DNA of 19,250 nt. It comes from Promethearchaeota archaeon (lineage in GTDB: Archaea > Asgardarchaeota > Lokiarchaeia > Sigyniarchaeales > SOKP01). Position 1 is the stretch's first letter, and each line of letters starts with the position of its first letter. The stretch lies in assembly GCA_004524535.1 (NCBI GenBank), contig SDNY01000069.1, positions 1 through 19,250 on the forward strand. The letters run 5' to 3'. Shown one piece after another: positions 479 to 17,993 of this stretch. Under the pieces are notes generated by a model, which saw only the letters and a list, made by a program, of their open reading frames with translations, had not been told where the DNA came from and ran no database searches. A program made the position numbers and the translations under genes.

Positions 479-544
479 TTAATATGTTCAAAATATAATT
501 TCCATTAAATATTGAAAAGATAATAGATGTAAAATGTGAGAAAA

Positions 545-1828
545 ATGAAGAATGAATATTATGTGGGAGAAGCACTTGTTGGAACAGGTGCTGACTTAGC
601 GCATATTGATTTATTAATTGGGTCTAAGAATGGACCTATTGGAATCTCTTTAGCAAATGCGCTTAGTGAACCCTCAAAAGGACACGGCGGTTTATTAGCG
701 GCAATCCGCCCGAATTTACTTGCAAAGCCAATTACATTAATCGTACCGAAGGTAACAGTGTCAAAGATGGAAGAGGCTAATAAAATATTTGGTCCTGCTC
801 AAGCTGCCGTTGCAAAAGGAGTAGTTGATGCAGTTGAGGAAGGTCTTATTCCAATGAATAAACTTGATGAGTGGGTAATAATTGCAAGTGTTTTTATTCA
901 TCCTGGGGCAACTGACTATAGAAAAATTTTCCAGTACAACTATGGAGCAACTAAATTAGCAATTCAAAGAGCTCTAAAAGCATATCCTCCAATTGAAAAG
1001 ATATTTTATGATAAAGACAGGGCAAAGCATCCAGTAGCGGGAATACGGATCCCAAGATTATGGAGGCCGCCATATATACAAGTAGCCTTAGACGCACCTA
1101 ATCTCGAACGCCAAATAAAAGTAGTAAAAGAATTACCCAAAAGTGATCGTATTATACTTGAGGTCGGTACGCCTTTTCTCAAGAAATATGGTATGGAAGC
1201 AATTAAGGAAATTCGAGAGGTTGCAAAAGAAGCTTTCATCGTCGCTGATTTAAAAACATTAGATGTAGGAAAATTAGAAGTTGATTTTGCATTTGATGCA
1301 ACTGCTGATGGGGTTGTAGCAAGTGGTTTAGCCTCTACTGCCTCACTTGATAAATTTATCTTGGAAGCTCAGCGCCTTGGCATTCACGCGTTTGTTGATA
1401 CTATGGAAGTACAAGATCCGGTTGCGAAATTGAGTTCGCTAAAACAAATCCCCGACGTTGTTATACTTCATAGAGCAATTGATGTTGAGCAGTCTGTAGA
1501 AGGTGATCAATCGCCGGATGCCGCGCAAAAAGCAAGATGGGCTTTGGTTCCAAAAATCAAAGAATTATACAAAGAACAAAAAAAGGCTTCGGGGAGGGAT
1601 CGTGTTTTAGTTGCTGTAGCGGGAGGTATTGAGCCGAATAGCGCAATATTTGCATTGAAACAAGGAGCCGATATATTGATAGTTGGAAGATTTATAGCCT
1701 CTGCAAAAGACGTAAAATTTGCGATGAGAAGGATACTCCAAACACTACCAGGTTATCAAGATATTGATTTAAAGCGTATTCACGAGGAAGATGACGACGA
1801 ATCTGTAAAAAAAGCCACCTGGGATTGA
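545..1828 (+). CDS. fae-hps: Bifunctional formaldehyde-activating enzyme (5,6,7,8-tetrahydromethanopterin hydro-lyase) / 3-hexulose-6-phosphate synthase
   Basis: N-terminal Fae motifs GEALVG..AHIDLLIG, PKVT, FGPAQAAVAK, VFIHP, YNYGATKLAI. C-terminal HPS/OMPDC barrel motifs QVALD, LEVGTP, ADLKTLDVG, LHRAID, VAVAGGI, GADILIVGR. ATG 545 preferred over GTG 536. Confidence 0.93.
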   Translation: MKNEYYVGEALVGTGADLAHIDLLIGSKNGPIGISLANALSEPSKGHGGLLAAIRPNLLAKPITLIVPKVTVSKMEEANKIFGPAQAAVAKGVVDAVEEGLIPMNKLDEWVIIASVFIHPGATDYRKIFQYNYGATKLAIQRALKAYPPIEKIFYDKDRAKHPVAGIRIPRLWRPPYIQVALDAPNLERQIKVVKELPKSDRIILEVGTPFLKKYGMEAIKEIREVAKEAFIVADLKTLDVGKLEVDFAFDATADGVVASGLASTASLDKFILEAQRLGIHAFVDTMEVQDPVAKLSSLKQIPDVVILHRAIDVEQSVEGDQSPDAAQKARWALVPKIKELYKEQKKASGRDRVLVAVAGGIEPNSAIFALKQGADILIVGRFIASAKDVKFAMRRILQTLPGYQDIDLKRIHEEDDDESVKKATWD

Positions 1829-1921: not shown

Positions 1922-2446
1922 TTATCCACTTGGTTGAAAATCATCAATTTCTTTGAGGATTTTTGAATAAAGTGTAGTAGAGATTCTAAATGTGGTATTT
2001 ACCACAAGATTTTCGATAAAATCTCTACATTTTTTTTTTGTTATGAATGATAAGTGCAATGCTTTGAGTATAATACCCAGAGTTCCGGTGATTTTAAGCC
2101 CTAATGTTCTTGCAATCTCTCGCGCCGTCAAATCATCAATAATGATAATATTCTCTTCAGCTTTATCCAGCAATTCTTTCCCTAGAGCGAGGATAGAAGC
2201 TTCTCCTGAGTGAATTTGTAATTTTTCAAGTTTTTTTATAAGCTTTTGATTACTGGTTTCTTTTATGGTTAACCATTCTGTAAAACTCTCTTCCAGTATA
2301 GTATATTCAGGAGCATTTTTTTGCCTTAAAACTTCATTTTTTACCAAGTTCGTCGTATAACACTTTGAAAAGAGCTTAGGAAACAATACAACTGCTCCAA
2401 TTTGTCCTAAATAGATTAATGGAGATGCATTTATGATTGCAATCAT
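1922..2446 (-). CDS. PIN-domain protein (DUF3368/COG2405-like, VapC-type toxin)
   Basis: IINASPLIYL, V.NEV, HSGEASIL, IIIDDLTAREIARTLGLKITGTLGIL pattern of DUF3368-type PIN proteins; immediately downstream of a small antitoxin-like gene. Confidence 0.85.
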   Translation of the reverse strand: MIAIINASPLIYLGQIGAVVLFPKLFSKCYTTNLVKNEVLRQKNAPEYTILEESFTEWLTIKETSNQKLIKKLEKLQIHSGEASILALGKELLDKAEENIIIIDDLTAREIARTLGLKITGTLGIILKALHLSFITKKKCRDFIENLVVNTTFRISTTLYSKILKEIDDFQPSG

Positions 2447-2455
2447 GATTATAAT

Positions 2456-2755
2456 TCATTCTAGGGCAAAATTTAAGTCTTCCCTAAGAGATTGTTCATC
2501 ATATCCAGAAAAGTTACATCTCTTTAACTCAAAGAGCATCTTTCTTAGCGATATTTTCGCGATTTCTGCTGCTTTCCACGCACTAATCTTTTTTTCTTCT
2601 ACTTGTTTGCAGAGAACTTCCATTAATTCCTCAGAAAGTGTCTTATCCAATAATTGGCGAATATAAGTAGATTTATCTATTATTTTTTGCTTTTTCATCA
2701 AGAAACTTAACTTATTTTCTAATTCTTCATCTAATCTAACTGAAAGAACTTTCAT
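2456..2755 (-). CDS. Antitoxin: N-terminal ribbon-helix-helix plus UPF0175-like C-terminal domain
   Basis: MKVLSVRLDEEL...DKSTYIRQLL (RHH); KISAWKAAEIAKISLRKMLFELKR...YDEQSLREDL (UPF0175-like); 9 bp upstream of the PIN gene. Confidence 0.82.
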   Translation of the reverse strand: MKVLSVRLDEELENKLSFLMKKQKIIDKSTYIRQLLDKTLSEELMEVLCKQVEEKKISAWKAAEIAKISLRKMLFELKRCNFSGYDEQSLREDLNFALE

Positions 2756-7299: not shown

Positions 7300-8715
7300 T
7301 TGAACTCTAATAATGAAACTTTTGAAGAATATATTCCAAGAAAATCTAAATTAGCTTTTGGTGCTCTTAACGCAGGTAATGGGGTTTTATCAGGAATAGC
7401 ATTTTCTACTATAACATTTTATTATAACGTGAAATTAGGTTTGGCGGCAGGATTTGTTGCATTAGCTTGGTTATTATTTGCCATTTGGAATACGATAAAT
7501 GATCCTCTTTTTGGTTATCTACAAGATCGTACAAAATCCAAATATGGAAGAAGAATTCCGTATGTTCGCTTTGGAGCTCCGATTATTGGGATTTTATTTA
7601 TTATTTGTTGGTTCCCTTTTGTTGATAGGACTGATGAATTCGGGCTCTTTTTAAATCTTTTAATTGTACTTTTATTATTTGATACATTATTTACAATAAT
7701 AGGCCTTATTGGCTTTTCCTTACCTGCAGAAATGGCCATTACACAAAAAGCTAGAACTGAGGTGGTGACTTATGGCGTAGTTCTCGGTGGCCTTGCATTA
7801 ATTTTCTCATTTATAATACCCGTTTTTCTTCTAACAGGTGATAAATCTACCAAAGTTAATCCAATGTTCTTAATTGCGATGATTTTCATTGGAATAATAT
7901 GTGCTTTTATTATTTTCATAAGTAGCTTTTTCTTAAAAGAAAATCTTTATACTCAACTTGAAGAACCATTAGGATTTAAAGATACTATAAAAGAAACCAT
8001 TAAAAATAAACCCTTTTTAAGATATGAAATTAGTAATTTTTCTTTTCTACTTGCTCAAACAATTTTTACAACGGGTATATTTTACTATATTGATTATGTT
8101 TTAAATATAAGTGGATATTTAACGATGGTCCCTCTCTTGCTTGTTTTTTTAATGGCATTCATCTTTACTCCCATTTTCGCCAAATTGTCGGGAAAATATG
8201 GGTTAAAAAAAGTATATATATTTGGCCTTGCATTTACTGGTATAATTTCTATCAGCTTCTTTTTCTTAGGTTGGTCTTTATTAACTGCAATCATTCCATT
8301 GCTTTTATTAGGGATTGGTTTTTCTGCGTTACTTCTTTTAAGACCAGCGATAATGGCTGATGTTATTGATTTTGACGAAACTCGTACTGGGAAGCGTAGA
8401 GAAACGAGTTATGGAGGAATGAATGCTGTAATTGAAAAACCAGCAGTCTCAATTGCAAACTGGATGTTTTTATTTGTGATTGTATATTTTGGCTTTCAAG
8501 CAAAAGCACAAACACAAGGCTTTCAAGCAAAAATGGGGATAATGGTAGCATTAACATTAATACCTGCGATATTTGTTCTGTTTAGTGCATTTATTATGAA
8601 ATTTTTCCCTTTAGATGGTCCGGAATGGAATAAGCAAAAATCAGAACTTAAAAGAATACACTATGAGAAGGAAAAAGAATATATCAAACATCTAAAAGAA
8701 CAAGGGAAAATTTAA
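7300..8715 (+). CDS. MFS transporter, GPH/MelB-like (MFS_2) family
   Basis: About 12 hydrophobic segments; IWNTINDPLFGYLQDRTKSKYGRRIPY; MADVIDFDETRTGKRRE. TTG start with GAGG upstream. Confidence 0.9.
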   Translation: MNSNNETFEEYIPRKSKLAFGALNAGNGVLSGIAFSTITFYYNVKLGLAAGFVALAWLLFAIWNTINDPLFGYLQDRTKSKYGRRIPYVRFGAPIIGILFIICWFPFVDRTDEFGLFLNLLIVLLLFDTLFTIIGLIGFSLPAEMAITQKARTEVVTYGVVLGGLALIFSFIIPVFLLTGDKSTKVNPMFLIAMIFIGIICAFIIFISSFFLKENLYTQLEEPLGFKDTIKETIKNKPFLRYEISNFSFLLAQTIFTTGIFYYIDYVLNISGYLTMVPLLLVFLMAFIFTPIFAKLSGKYGLKKVYIFGLAFTGIISISFFFLGWSLLTAIIPLLLLGIGFSALLLLRPAIMADVIDFDETRTGKRRETSYGGMNAVIEKPAVSIANWMFLFVIVYFGFQAKAQTQGFQAKMGIMVALTLIPAIFVLFSAFIMKFFPLDGPEWNKQKSELKRIHYEKEKEYIKHLKEQGKI

Positions 8716-8735: not shown

Positions 8736-10133
8736 CTATCTTTGTTCTGTCCCTACTATTGGAACTTTCTGAAAGATGATTACAGCAATTAAGATTAAGC
8801 CACTGCCAACTACAGATATTATTAACGCGTAGGAAATTGGTGATTCTGGACCAAATAATTGCAGGATAATTGATACTATTAGCATAGAAAGAGCAGCGGC
8901 GAGCGATCCTATCATTATAAATGCCCCCGAATATGTTCCGCTCAATGATTTTCCATCAGCTTTCGATTCAGCAGAATCAATAAGATCTCCCATTATTGCA
9001 AATGGGAATGTCATCGTTCCAACCAAACTGCAAAAACAGAGGCATATTATAGCGACGCCAAATATAAACGTTAATTGATGCGTCATTGGTATAATCAAGA
9101 TTAATATAAGAGAGAACGATATACTAGAAAAGATTAAACAAATAGTGAATGTCTTCTTCAGCGAAAATTTCTGCGAAATTTTTTGCCAGATTACAAATGA
9201 AAAGATAGTTGAAATAAATCCAATCAATATCGCAATTAAAAATTCGATACCTCTTAAATCCAATACAAATGTAGCTAAATTTACGGCTAAAAATTGAAAA
9301 GCCATAAAAGGGACCCAAAATATAAAAAATGTAATTAACCATCTTCTATAATTTCTATCTTTTAAAGGCTTAGAAAGCCCTCTTAAAATGTCTTTAAATC
9401 CTGTGTGCTCTCTATTCGTCTTCTTCGGTTCTTTTATTATAAGCATCATCAGAGTCATAAGTACTAAGAAAAAGATTCCAATTAATATTACAAATAACAT
9501 AATTTGAGAATATATTGCTTGACCGGAAGCAGAATTTTTATAATATAAATTAGGATCTTCTCTCGAAAGATTTTGAGTTGCATTACTCATTAGAATGAAG
9601 GGACCAATTATCCCTATCACTATTCCTAAGATCGTCATTAGCATATTAATCATGCTAACTTTAACTCTATTTTTTTCGTCAGTGCTGAGTTCTGGAAAGA
9701 GAGCTAACATTGAAGATTGAAAAGCTCCAATCATCATTCGAAATGAAAATGAAAAAATTAAAAACCAAATTATTAATGGAAGATAAATTTGACCGTATTT
9801 TGTATCAGGGATCGGTGGCATCCAGATAAATATGAAGGCAATCGCCATCACCGGTCCAGAAATTAACATAACTTTCTTTTTTCCGATTTTATCTGCTATT
9901 GCCCCACCTATTATACACATCATTGCATAAACAACTAATCCTGCTGAAAAAATGCCCCCTACTACAATTGGGGGTTGCCCCATAATGTTGATATAAAAAA
10001 GAAGAGTAAAACTTACCGCTATTGCTAAAATTGCCTGCAACCCTGCATTTGGTAAAGTATAAGCTACTGCTTGTCCTGTTGATAATATTTTATGCTCAAA
10101 AAGAGTTTTATCTCCTTCAGATTTTTCAGTCAT
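8736..10133 (-). CDS. MFS transporter, GPH-like family (divergent)
   Basis: About 12 TM segments; GAIADKIGKKK (motif A), ALFPELSTDEKNR, AIMGDLIDS..SLSGTYSG. Confidence 0.85.
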   Translation of the reverse strand: MTEKSEGDKTLFEHKILSTGQAVAYTLPNAGLQAILAIAVSFTLLFYINIMGQPPIVVGGIFSAGLVVYAMMCIIGGAIADKIGKKKVMLISGPVMAIAFIFIWMPPIPDTKYGQIYLPLIIWFLIFSFSFRMMIGAFQSSMLALFPELSTDEKNRVKVSMINMLMTILGIVIGIIGPFILMSNATQNLSREDPNLYYKNSASGQAIYSQIMLFVILIGIFFLVLMTLMMLIIKEPKKTNREHTGFKDILRGLSKPLKDRNYRRWLITFFIFWVPFMAFQFLAVNLATFVLDLRGIEFLIAILIGFISTIFSFVIWQKISQKFSLKKTFTICLIFSSISFSLILILIIPMTHQLTFIFGVAIICLCFCSLVGTMTFPFAIMGDLIDSAESKADGKSLSGTYSGAFIMIGSLAAALSMLIVSIILQLFGPESPISYALIISVVGSGLILIAVIIFQKVPIVGTEQR

Positions 10134-15163: not shown

Positions 15164-15910
15164 ATGGTTATTGAGGTTGAATTAAGCGAAACAGGGCATC
15201 TCTCTGGTATCCTTGGAGTTTTTGCTATATGCGTAGCGTTCCTGTTAGGCGGAATTGTTCTATATAAAGCGATTAAATTAAAACAAAAGATGCTTTTTTA
15301 TTTCTTTTTAACAGTCTTTTTTACAATCAGTCCGTGGTACTCTTCTGGATTTGGCTATATTTTTTTATTAATTACTAAAAGTACTCTTGATTATCGGTTT
15401 TATGTTTTGCTCGGAACGATTTTTATTCCCATTGCCATCCTTGCGTGGCTAACAATATACATGACAGTTATATTCCCCAAAAAAAAGAATTTTATTCTGA
15501 TTTCTTATGCCATCTTTTCAATTTTCTTTTACATTTATCTGATTTTATTCCTTTACACTGTTCCAGGAGCTCCAATAGAGAGCATGGTTGGAATTAAAAG
15601 AACTCCTATTGATATTGAATATAGCGGTTTTGTTTTTATTTATCTGGGATTAATGATAGCAACTGCTGTTCTTACAGGTATCCATTTTTCCATTATTTCT
15701 TTAAAATCAGATACAATTGAAGTTAAATGGAAAGGTAGATTTTTATTAAGCGCTTTCATTTCTTTTGGAATTGGAGCGATCGCAGATGGGCTACTTAATT
15801 TATCTCTCCTTTTTTTATTTATCTTCAGAGTAATCCTACTGGTTTCAGCAAGCCTTTTTTATATAGGATTTATAATGCCAAAGTGGATGAAAAAAATCAT
15901 TAAGATATAA
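15164..15910 (+). CDS. Seven-transmembrane protein of unknown function
   Basis: Seven hydrophobic segments by eye; Lys-rich loops after TM1, TM3 and TM5; basic C-terminal tail PKWMKKIIKI; no soluble output domain. Confidence 0.7.
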   Translation: MVIEVELSETGHLSGILGVFAICVAFLLGGIVLYKAIKLKQKMLFYFFLTVFFTISPWYSSGFGYIFLLITKSTLDYRFYVLLGTIFIPIAILAWLTIYMTVIFPKKKNFILISYAIFSIFFYIYLILFLYTVPGAPIESMVGIKRTPIDIEYSGFVFIYLGLMIATAVLTGIHFSIISLKSDTIEVKWKGRFLLSAFISFGIGAIADGLLNLSLLFLFIFRVILLVSASLFYIGFIMPKWMKKIIKI

Positions 15911-15965: not shown

Positions 15966-16415
15966 TTATATTATTGATTTCATTAATTCAATAAATTCCT
16001 CAAAATTTATTTTATCATCTCCATCCATATCTACTTCTTTTAACATGGCTCTGATTTGCATCTCATTTAAATTTTCCCCTACTTCTTTCATAATACGTTT
16101 CAATTCATCTAAAGTAACATATTTATTTCCATCGCAATCACATATCTTAAAGGCTTCTATTAGTTTTTCTTCTTGGACTTTAAAATGTATGTATTTCTTA
16201 TATAAGCTCAAGAACTCATGGAACGTAATATATCCATCCTGATTCAAATCATTATCATTCATCATTTCTAAGAGCTCTTTTTCTGTAAAATGATGTCCAA
16301 GTGCTTCATAAACATTTCCTAATTCATTGATCGTTATAGATCCACTTCTATCTTCATCAAACAAGGCAAATTGCTCTCTTATATTATGTAATTCTTCATC
16401 TCCAATTTCAAACAA
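15966..16415 (-). CDS. Calmodulin-like four-EF-hand protein (149 aa)
   Basis: EF loops DEDRSGSITINE, DLNQDGYITFHE, DCDGNKYVTLDE, DMDGDDKINFEE at calmodulin spacing; TTG start with GAGGG about 10 nt upstream. Confidence 0.92.
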   Translation of the reverse strand: MFEIGDEELHNIREQFALFDEDRSGSITINELGNVYEALGHHFTEKELLEMMNDNDLNQDGYITFHEFLSLYKKYIHFKVQEEKLIEAFKICDCDGNKYVTLDELKRIMKEVGENLNEMQIRAMLKEVDMDGDDKINFEEFIELMKSII

Positions 16416-16458
16416 GATTTTTTAACCCTCTTTTTAGTTCTGTTATCAATATTTTTTG

Positions 16459-17934
16459 TTAATAACTCTTAGCAAGATATACTGTACATGAGGCAGGTTC
16501 TCCACAAATTATACAACTTGCAAATTCATGTTTTTCTTCATCCACACGCTTTCCTCGTACAAAAGCTCCAATTTCTTTTTCAACAACTTCGGCACATCTA
16601 ATTCCTTTATTATCTATAGAGCAAAAACCACAACACACAATCTTACCATTTTCAATTGCTTCCATAGCTGAATCTTTTTCATAACATAATTCTATTTGAG
16701 ATTCGAAATCTAACATCTTCTTTTCTTTAATTTCTTTTGTATAATTTTCAGCCATGTTTTCTATAAATGATTCAATTTCCTTATTTTTTATATTGAATTT
16801 TTGGCCATCATGTCTTTTTACTATGACTACTTGATTATTTGCCACGTCCTTAGGTCCAATTTCAATTCTGAATGGAACACCTTTCATTTCCCAGTAATAA
16901 AATTTACTACCAGGAGATTCATCAGAATCGTCCAGTTTTACTATATATTTATCCCTAATTGTCTCGTAGACTTCTTTACATTTCTCTAAAACATTCTTCT
17001 CTTTTCCTTTAATTAATATTGGAACTATAACAATTTGAATTGGTGCTAAATCGAATGGTAAAATTAATCCCTTATCATCCCCTAAATACGCAATCATCGC
17101 ACCATAGATTCTACTTATGGCAGGGCCATAGCAAGTTTGATAACCATACTTTTCATTTCCATCTTTATCAACAAATTTAACATTGAATGGCTTTGAAAAG
17201 TTCTGACCAAGTAGGTGAGTAGAAGGGAGTTGTAATACTTTTCCAGATCCCATGAGAGCATCGGCTGCGTAAGTATTAATCGCACCCGCAAATTTGTCCC
17301 ATTGAGGACGCTCAAAAAAGATGATTGGAATACAGAATTCATCTTGAAGCATTTGATAGGTCATTTTCATATCTTCATGCACTTGCGCCATAGCATCATC
17401 TTCTGTGGCAAAAACATCATGGGCTTCTATCCAATGAAATTCTCTTCCTCTAAAAAATGGACGCGTCATTTTTCCTTCATAACGCCATACCTGACATGAT
17501 TGATATCTTTTAAATGGCAAATCTTTATAACTTCGAATCCAAATGCTATACATTGGATAAAGAGCCGTTTCACTCGTAGGGCGAAGTGCTAATCTTTCGC
17601 TTAAGGGACCTGAGCTTCCTGCTTCAGTAATCCAAAACACTTCTGGTGCAAACCCTTCCACATGGGTAGCTTCTAACATAAGATTACTTTCGGGAATTAA
17701 AGAAGGCATTGTGAGTGGTAAGTGCCCATTTTTTTCCAGAAGCTCCTCGTATTTTCTATACATCTTTCGAATACTAATAGTAGCCCAAGGTCTATAACAC
17801 ACAAATCCTTTTACATTATATCTAATATCCGCCAGCTCGGCTTTCTCAATTATTTCAGTATACCACGCAGAAAAATCCTCGTCTTTCGAAACTGTAATTC
17901 CCGTTATTGGCGCTTCTTTTTTCTTTTTTGCCAT
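16459..17934 (-). CDS. proS: Proline--tRNA ligase, archaeal/eukaryotic type
   Basis: DFSAWY, HVEGFAPEV, LALRPTSE, WRYE..TRPFFRGREFHWIEAH, THLLGQNFSKPF, WEMKGVPFRIEIGPKD, C-terminal CIICG..AKSY. ATG 17934 preferred over TTG 17946. Confidence 0.96.
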   Translation of the reverse strand: MAKKKKEAPITGITVSKDEDFSAWYTEIIEKAELADIRYNVKGFVCYRPWATISIRKMYRKYEELLEKNGHLPLTMPSLIPESNLMLEATHVEGFAPEVFWITEAGSSGPLSERLALRPTSETALYPMYSIWIRSYKDLPFKRYQSCQVWRYEGKMTRPFFRGREFHWIEAHDVFATEDDAMAQVHEDMKMTYQMLQDEFCIPIIFFERPQWDKFAGAINTYAADALMGSGKVLQLPSTHLLGQNFSKPFNVKFVDKDGNEKYGYQTCYGPAISRIYGAMIAYLGDDKGLILPFDLAPIQIVIVPILIKGKEKNVLEKCKEVYETIRDKYIVKLDDSDESPGSKFYYWEMKGVPFRIEIGPKDVANNQVVIVKRHDGQKFNIKNKEIESFIENMAENYTKEIKEKKMLDFESQIELCYEKDSAMEAIENGKIVCCGFCSIDNKGIRCAEVVEKEIGAFVRGKRVDEEKHEFASCIICGEPASCTVYLAKSY

Positions 17935-17993
17935 AACAATCAACAAATAAAATATTTCAAAAATTATTAATTTTTCTCTTAATTAAATCGTTT

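Follow-up and report, generated by a model that had tools for sequence, protein, structure and literature searches.

The 19,250 nucleotide stretch of Lokiarchaeial DNA analysed here (the window) encodes a 149 amino acid calmodulin-like protein belonging to a family that is confined, within the searches made, to a subclade within a single family of the Promethearchaeota (Lokiarchaeia). In our judgement the protein is on balance a calmodulin-type Ca2+ sensor that was acquired once by this subclade, probably from a eukaryote, and was later lost or moved repeatedly. Calmodulin itself is treated as a eukaryotic invention, and the results summarised below point to the archaeal calmodulin-like EF-hand protein being a lineage-restricted accessory gene more than the ancestor of calmodulin.

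The coding sequence occupies positions 15966–16415 on the minus strand, stop codon included, and specifies 149 amino acids when read from a TTG codon (as judged from the list of open reading frames, Pfam and phmmer). The translation start region (16416–16430, minus strand) contains a GAGGG motif at 16430–16426, 10 nt ahead of the TTG (16415–16413), which is itself immediately preceded by ATC (16418–16416). The gene of the closest relative (G008) begins ATG-TTG-TTT, where the window copy has ATC-TTG-TTT and no ATG (16413–16418, minus strand). As G008 has an ATG at the same place, the ancestral ATG has been lost from the window copy, in which translation must then begin at TTG or ATC; TTG, the next codon after ATC, is the sole common start codon left.

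Upstream on the same strand and 43 bp away lies proS (16459–17946, minus strand), which encodes a prolyl-tRNA synthetase (ProRS) with an archaeal/eukaryotic C-terminal domain (Pfam domains tRNA-synt_2b, HGTP_anticodon and ProRS-C_1). The downstream neighbour is convergent (15164–15910, plus strand) and encodes a 248 amino acid hydrophobic protein with no Pfam match, a homologue of which adjoins the proS region in G008 and in a second genome, G005. The first-pass annotation of this DNA had described a 149 amino acid four-EF-hand gene with a GAGGG motif 43 bp behind a same-strand proS, a description confirmed by the reading frames, the sequence and Pfam. Scanning the window with bacterial promoter and terminator models, which are uninformative for archaea, gave seven promoter-like sites (11.0 expected) and zero terminators, and a tRNA scan of the window found none. 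Elsewhere in the window, a formaldehyde-activating enzyme (Fae) fused to an OMPdecase/HUMPS-family domain is encoded at 536–1828 (plus strand), genes for UPF0175 (99 amino acids) and DUF3368 (174 amino acids) proteins adjoin one another at 1922–2755 (minus strand) and are presumably a small toxin–antitoxin-type module, and two convergent paralogous MFS_2 transporter genes are found at 7300–8715 (plus strand) and 8736–10133 (minus strand), a pair kept in G008.

The calmodulin-like gene is native to its genome and intact. Its genome, 99% complete and assembled into 198 contigs, contains a single copy, and the two halves of this gene give that genome's only matches to the EF-hand_7 profile, making its product the sole EF-hand protein there. 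The GC content of the gene region (0.28–0.29) lies inside the range seen across the window (0.23–0.41), the contigs bearing family relatives reach 663 kb and dN/dS values of 0.11–0.44 in seven of seven pairs indicate purifying selection. That the locus is an assembly chimera, or a eukaryotic contaminant of the metagenome-assembled genome (MAG), is next to inconceivable. Both genomes with the proS junction are metagenome bins, and nothing specific otherwise speaks for such an artefact. Against it, a contig of 143.9 kb in G008, an independent MAG from the same genus, is collinear over 16 kb that include this junction and ~90% identical there in DNA sequence, eight other genomes carry the family within archaeal contigs, the GC content is in line with that of the neighbouring genes and homologous flanks are common to relatives. 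The view taken in the first-pass annotation that the gene is native thus holds good, on the strength of the shared junction, the matching GC content, the archaeal contigs and the dN/dS values.

In the 149 amino acid protein Pfam recognises EF-hand_1 four times and the EF-hand_7 pair twice (PF13499, E = 1.3e-31), the EF-hand_7 score of 109.2 bits over two stretches, against a curated cut-off of 30, placing it in the EF-hand superfamily. Searching the PDB with phmmer matched 530 chains, with residues 4–146 of the protein aligning to residues 5–147 of calmodulin in a single gapless stretch; the best stand-alone chain is 1clm (E = 1.8e-34), and a hand count on the phmmer alignment gives 56 identities in 143 columns against the calmodulin part of 4il1. 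Across 17 named calmodulin domains there are 51–63 identities with the window protein (35–43%), and MAFFT introduces no more than one gap column (0–1) against 13 of the 17. An insect calmodulin domain (P0211) yields 56 identities over 148 positions, and this figure matches the ungapped alignment with roughly 56 of 148 identities to human calmodulin that had been claimed beforehand. The linker matches and the shared Met51, Met109, Met124 and Met145 claimed at the same time are all visible in the phmmer alignment.

An AlphaFold2 model of the protein (pLDDT 85.3, pTM 0.64, from a 22-row alignment) comprises two EF-hand pairs with a helix running between them over residues 65–92. When this model was compared with the PDB using Foldseek, the top 12 matches were all calmodulin, with mouse centrin-1 at rank 13 (33% identity). 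Prediction of a two-copy complex, in which a homodimer would form via the hydrophobic linker, gave a score of 0.00, which counts neither way. Set against the defining features of calmodulin, the window protein has the length of ~148 residues, the four EF-hands, the lack of extensions and the collinearity, but neither the very high sequence conservation (identity is 35–43% to calmodulins and falls to 50% within the family) nor the nine-methionine pockets and flexible acidic linker: four of the nine methionines are present, the linker is replaced and Phe92 is changed to Cys.

Residue conservation was counted over 47 rows of the calmodulin-like archaeal family. Every one of the 47 members retains the full set of 16 key Ca2+ ligand positions, with D, N or S at the first, third and fifth positions of each loop and Glu at the twelfth. 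Taking these four positions in order, the loop of EF-hand 1 (16323–16358, minus strand; residues 20–31) has D, D (N), S (N) and E, that of EF-hand 2 (16215–16250, minus strand; residues 56–67) has D, N, D and E, that of EF-hand 3 (16104–16139, minus strand; residues 93–104) has D, D (N), N, S or D and finally E, and that of EF-hand 4 (15996–16031, minus strand; residues 129–140), for which the codons were checked by hand, has D, D (N), D and E, in every case in 47/47 rows. Position 6 is less orthodox. In EF-hand 3 it is mostly not glycine (K in 17, G in 13, Q in 7, E in 4 and R in 3 of the 47 rows, with 3 rows beyond these counts) and in EF-hand 4 it is mostly Asp or Asn (47 rows). A missing glycine at loop position 6 could lower Ca2+ affinity.

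Beyond the loops, F16, F65, F68, F89, L105, L116 and F141 are invariant across the 47 rows, and M51, M109, M124 and M145 are kept in 35–44 of them. Five of the nine calmodulin methionine positions are replaced (36 by Y/F, 71 by L, 72 by Y, 76 by V/I and 144 by L) and the residue corresponding to Phe92 of calmodulin is Cys in 44/47. A further departure is seen in the central linker, where the acidic, flexible segment of calmodulin gives way to a family-specific stretch of hydrophobic and basic residues (residues 72–81; 16173–16202, minus strand) that includes Y72 (46/47), K73 (47/47), V/I76 (39/47) and F78 (35/47). The replaced methionines, Cys92 and the hydrophobic and basic linker together suggest that target recognition may differ from that of calmodulin.

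From the loop ligands, the Phe/Leu core, the four kept methionines, the two-lobe model and the Foldseek matches, we infer that the family protein binds Ca2+ and serves as a Ca2+-triggered, target-clamping sensor. By homology, Ca2+ would fill the four canonical EF-hand loops, each lobe would then open and uncover a pocket whose hydrophobic lining consists of Phe, Leu, Met and Tyr, and this pocket would grip an amphipathic helix in one or a few putative target proteins. The host is not known to have the classical calmodulin targets. A protein of the same origin might instead serve to buffer or chelate Ca2+ in the cytosol without binding a target, an idea consistent with the finding of no conserved neighbour or co-distributed partner, with its being the only EF-hand protein in the genome and with divergence that is fast compared with eukaryotic calmodulin. 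We think this rather unlikely, however, given that the pocket-lining residues of calmodulin, many of them also core residues, are invariant or conservatively kept across the 47 rows and that the two lobes and long central helix of the model are the architecture of a sensor. Identity within the family drops to 50% between genera of one archaeal family, compared with 78–93% for ProRS overall and 78–81% for ProRS where the calmodulin-like protein is at 50%, suggesting few constraining partners, unlike a many-partner hub, and on this point the sensor 'hub' proposed in the first-pass annotation is not sustained.

Nor does the neighbourhood of the gene single out a partner. In the window genome and in G008 (G000 and G008) the gene lies 40–43 nt behind a same-strand proS, but in three genomes of genus g4 the same-strand upstream gene encodes a NikR-like ribbon-helix-helix protein (gap of 78–88 nt), in G023 it is cbiQ (111 nt), in G007 it encodes a PLP-dependent decarboxylase (115 nt) and in both g6 genomes it is a trpB-like gene (20–23 nt), with trpA found downstream. 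Synteny across the nine family loci therefore identifies no conserved partner gene. DUF4140-like neighbours of the gene in g4 were considered as a co-distributed partner and rejected, being present in three of five carriers and two of five non-carriers. The slot behind proS is itself variable in content: in G005 (L020, 262–1461) it contains ORFs of 65 and 299 amino acids and in G001 (L021, 3155–4281) three similar Cys-rich, zinc-ribbon-like ORFs of 57–63 amino acids. With proS adjacency conserved only in the nearest relative, G008, and other genes at the slot and other neighbours elsewhere, the adjacency appears incidental, and a functional coupling to proS finds no support from synteny. What is shared is proximity: in 9/9 family loci a same-strand gene, drawn from five different upstream genes, lies 20–115 nt away, which suggests read-through transcription, and the calmodulin-like gene may ride on the transcript of whichever gene lies upstream.

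Searches of large sequence collections returned ~47 related protein clusters; those that carry a name all come from MAGs of Promethearchaeota type. When 5.8 billion protein clusters were searched, there were 43 matches among 69 candidates, with P0001–P0039 being 46–90% identical to the window protein, and the named family members are labelled Promethearchaeota, Lokiarchaeota, 'Hermodarchaeota' or simply archaeon. P0028 bears the NCBI label 'Candidatus Hermodarchaeota archaeon'. Its sequence is the same as that of the protein from G007, a genome placed in the window's own genus, and the label does not therefore widen the range of the family. Of 2701 candidates compared with a family profile, 354 reached E ≤ 1e-10. 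The best 120 of these 354 comprise 44 full-length family clusters and three fragments, the lowest full-length family member scoring 191 bits, followed by single-domain calmodulins at ~150 bits. When 1.84 billion cluster representatives were read, 27,714 matched at E ≤ 1e-3; among the best 150 of these are only three family representatives, of 149–150 amino acids, the rest being long multi-repeat EF-hand or calmodulin-type proteins that align with residues 4–146 in one stretch at 39–44% identity. Every named non-family match is a eukaryotic calmodulin or calmodulin-like protein, most metagenomic matches carrying no name, and each of the 10 Atlas clusters listed is 100% Eukaryota. Among 34 pattern matches on viral contigs there is no family relative, leaving a viral vector unsupported.

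A motif scan of 185,579 species genomes found five archaeal loci and one weak bacterial locus, but is not exhaustive, since the motif misses G007, G177 and G179. The bacterial match, on a Verrucomicrobiales contig, shows 25% identity (E = 6e-5). It bears on the idea that the family has a bacterial calmodulin-like source, or arose within the archaea from a single EF-hand pair, its likeness to calmodulin reflecting convergence or an ancestry shared with the proposed bacterial source of calmodulin. Schaffer et al. (2020; PMC7016017) derive calmodulin and calmodulin-like EF-hands from cyanobacteria or actinobacteria, with only the calcineurin phosphatase coming from Asgard archaea; no Asgard calmodulin is mentioned in the passages of their paper on Asgard archaea and calmodulin. 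We regard such an origin for the family as very improbable, as the gapless 35–43% identity to calmodulin far exceeds the 25% shared with the sole bacterial match and there is no bacterial entry among the named non-family matches (with most metagenomic matches unnamed).

To define its distribution, the family was sought in 399 Asgard species genomes; the counts depend both on this sample and on the completeness of its MAGs (58–100%). Only nine of the 399 carry the family, the window genome included, and all are in the GTDB-type family f1, in which eight of the 133 other genomes are carriers. By genus, the family is present in three of nine g1 genomes (two of eight without the window genome), in all four g4 genomes and in two of six g6 genomes, and is absent from the two best-sampled genera, g2 (0/42) and g11 (0/54; 0/96 in total). 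Non-carriers in the window's genus include G005 (98% complete) and G001 (92% complete). The first-pass annotation had called for a homology search across Asgard genomes and had allowed for a gene with no other archaeal homologues; such homologues do exist. EF-hands are rare in these organisms, with EF-hand_7 above its cut-off in just 14 of the 399 genomes, and at E ≤ 1e-3 the family profile adds only G038, together with G036 and G091, each of which has one EF-hand pair. In G038, a member of another Lokiarchaeial family, a 150 amino acid four-EF-hand protein with four canonical loops is encoded beside a formate-tetrahydrofolate ligase gene (L019, 7478–7930). It aligns without gaps to residues 2–147 of the window protein at 25% identity (profile E = 1.1e-20).

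A quick single-marker tree of ProRS from 30 genomes, including incomplete bins, has a branch with 99 SH-aLRT support that separates g1+g4+g6+g10 from the clade of g2 and g11, and the six carriers sampled all fall on the g1+g4+g6+g10 side. The carrier pattern on this tree needs four changes of state and fits one gain in the g1+g4+g6+g10 subclade followed by losses. Five of the g2 genomes (G257, G247, G009, G258 and G271) have one in-frame TAG inside a ProRS match that otherwise extends over the full length; as the longest open frame in G257 nevertheless runs to 492 amino acids, the TAG may sit at the very start.

Trees of the family itself were built without centrin, troponin C or calcineurin B and are unrooted, three protein searches and the representative search having returned only calmodulin-type rows and thus no paralogue to serve as outgroup. 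Proteins longer than 300 amino acids, matches covering fewer than 125 query residues (such as P0043) and family fragments shorter than 140 amino acids were left out, as were non-family rows redundant at 85% (first tree) or 80% identity (second tree), and the family was cut to 26 rows in the second tree. In the first and more careful tree (90 rows, 149 columns) the 47 Asgard rows form a clade with 100/100 support on a stem of 0.84 substitutions per site (0.76–0.84 across the two trees). Its neighbours there are divergent calmodulin-like rows whose placement is unsupported (63/28 and 71/88), and the family lies outside the moderately supported clan formed by canonical calmodulins (83/77). In the second, quick tree (89 rows) the family joins divergent ascomycete calmodulins with 84 SH-aLRT, a join that is likely to be a long-branch effect; the G038 protein and P0041/P0042 also behave as long branches in the trees. 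Neither the 90-row nor the 89-row tree puts the family inside a eukaryotic lineage, and no donor lineage was found.

This placement is what might be expected if the family were a vertical relic of an Asgard protein with four EF-hands, one that in the stem eukaryote became the source of calmodulin, centrin and calcineurin B and that was lost by nearly all other Asgard lineages. It nests in no eukaryotic lineage and has a long stem outside the canonical clan, its internal branches are deep (with 50% identity between genera and the unplaced metagenomic branches P0035 and P0037–39), the very divergent G038 protein from another Lokiarchaeial family is equally collinear and, according to parts of a study of gelsolins (PMC9433394), Ca2+-regulated gelsolins attest to Ca2+ signalling in Asgard archaea. 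On such a reading, the central eukaryotic Ca2+ sensor would be a legacy of the archaeal host rather than of a bacterium, with only a few Lokiarchaeia having kept it, a scenario to which we give little credence. Descent of this kind is improbable as it needs loss in ~390 of the 399 sampled genomes, including those of every family except f1, and because a place outside the canonical clan is not diagnostic: calmodulins and calmodulin-like proteins that post-date LECA, from ascomycetes, tick and tapeworm, fall outside it in the same trees. Moreover, forcing the family to group with six alveolate calmodulins is not rejected by the AU test (p = 0.30, delta lnL 13.5). Against a eukaryotic source, on the other hand, the best match of the family being to calmodulin may only mirror the slow evolution of calmodulin.

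Taken together, the limited spread of the family and the scarcity of EF-hands across Asgard archaea are most economically explained by one late acquisition from a eukaryote, although both the direction and the source of the transfer are matters that we infer. The gene would have been received a single time by the ancestor of three genera, its most probable source being a eukaryotic gene for calmodulin or a calmodulin-like protein, and would thereafter have evolved fast and undergone repeated loss or relocation. Two origins had been put forward in the first-pass annotation, namely a eukaryote-to-archaeon transfer and a pre-eukaryotic one; the former best fits the narrow distribution and the latter is the less favoured.

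No title or abstract among those listed for the literature on Asgard, Lokiarchaeota or archaeal calmodulin or EF-hands describes the family, although the supplements of surveys of eukaryotic signature proteins may list it, and the terms 'calmodulin' and 'EF-hand' do not appear in PMC9433394. If acquired as proposed, the family may represent a clear-cut instance in which a core signalling gene of eukaryotes passed into their closest archaeal lineage, and this bears on how patchy 'eukaryotic signature proteins' are interpreted; less likely, it may be a trace of an archaeal origin of calmodulin. On either reading, it offers a tractable soluble protein for probing Ca2+ signals in Lokiarchaeia, which also have Ca2+-regulated gelsolins.

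Comparison with known systems puts the family in context. The Asgard gelsolins are described as Ca2+-regulated in parts of two papers (PMC9433394; PMC7444086) and, on those accounts, are evidence that Ca2+ serves as a signal in Asgard cells; like the calmodulin-like family they occur in Lokiarchaeia, but they have an unrelated fold and a wide distribution among Asgard archaea, and nothing was found to link them with the calmodulin-like gene. The bacterial calmodulin-like proteins treated in the relevant passages of PMC7016017 are likewise prokaryotic, are built from EF-hand pairs and are the proposed source of calmodulin, but are often fused to other domains and stand much further from calmodulin than the Asgard family does. 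Centrin (mouse centrin-1, PDB 5d43) has the same four-EF-hand, two-lobe fold but, at Foldseek rank 13, shows a TM-score of 0.53 and 33% identity, compared with 38–43% for the calmodulins in the same list. Eukaryotic calmodulin (Paramecium 1clm, 1exr and 1osa, and the vertebrate protein) remains the best match in both sequence and fold, with 148–149 residues, four EF-hands and two lobes, the same loop spacing and canonical ligands in all four loops, and Met51, Met109, Met124, Met145 and the Phe/Leu core in common with the archaeal family. The named calmodulin domains from diverse eukaryotes mostly collapse at 85% identity, however, whereas the archaeal protein is only 35–43% identical to calmodulins and, unlike eukaryotic calmodulin, belongs to a rapidly evolving family that some members of a genus can do without.
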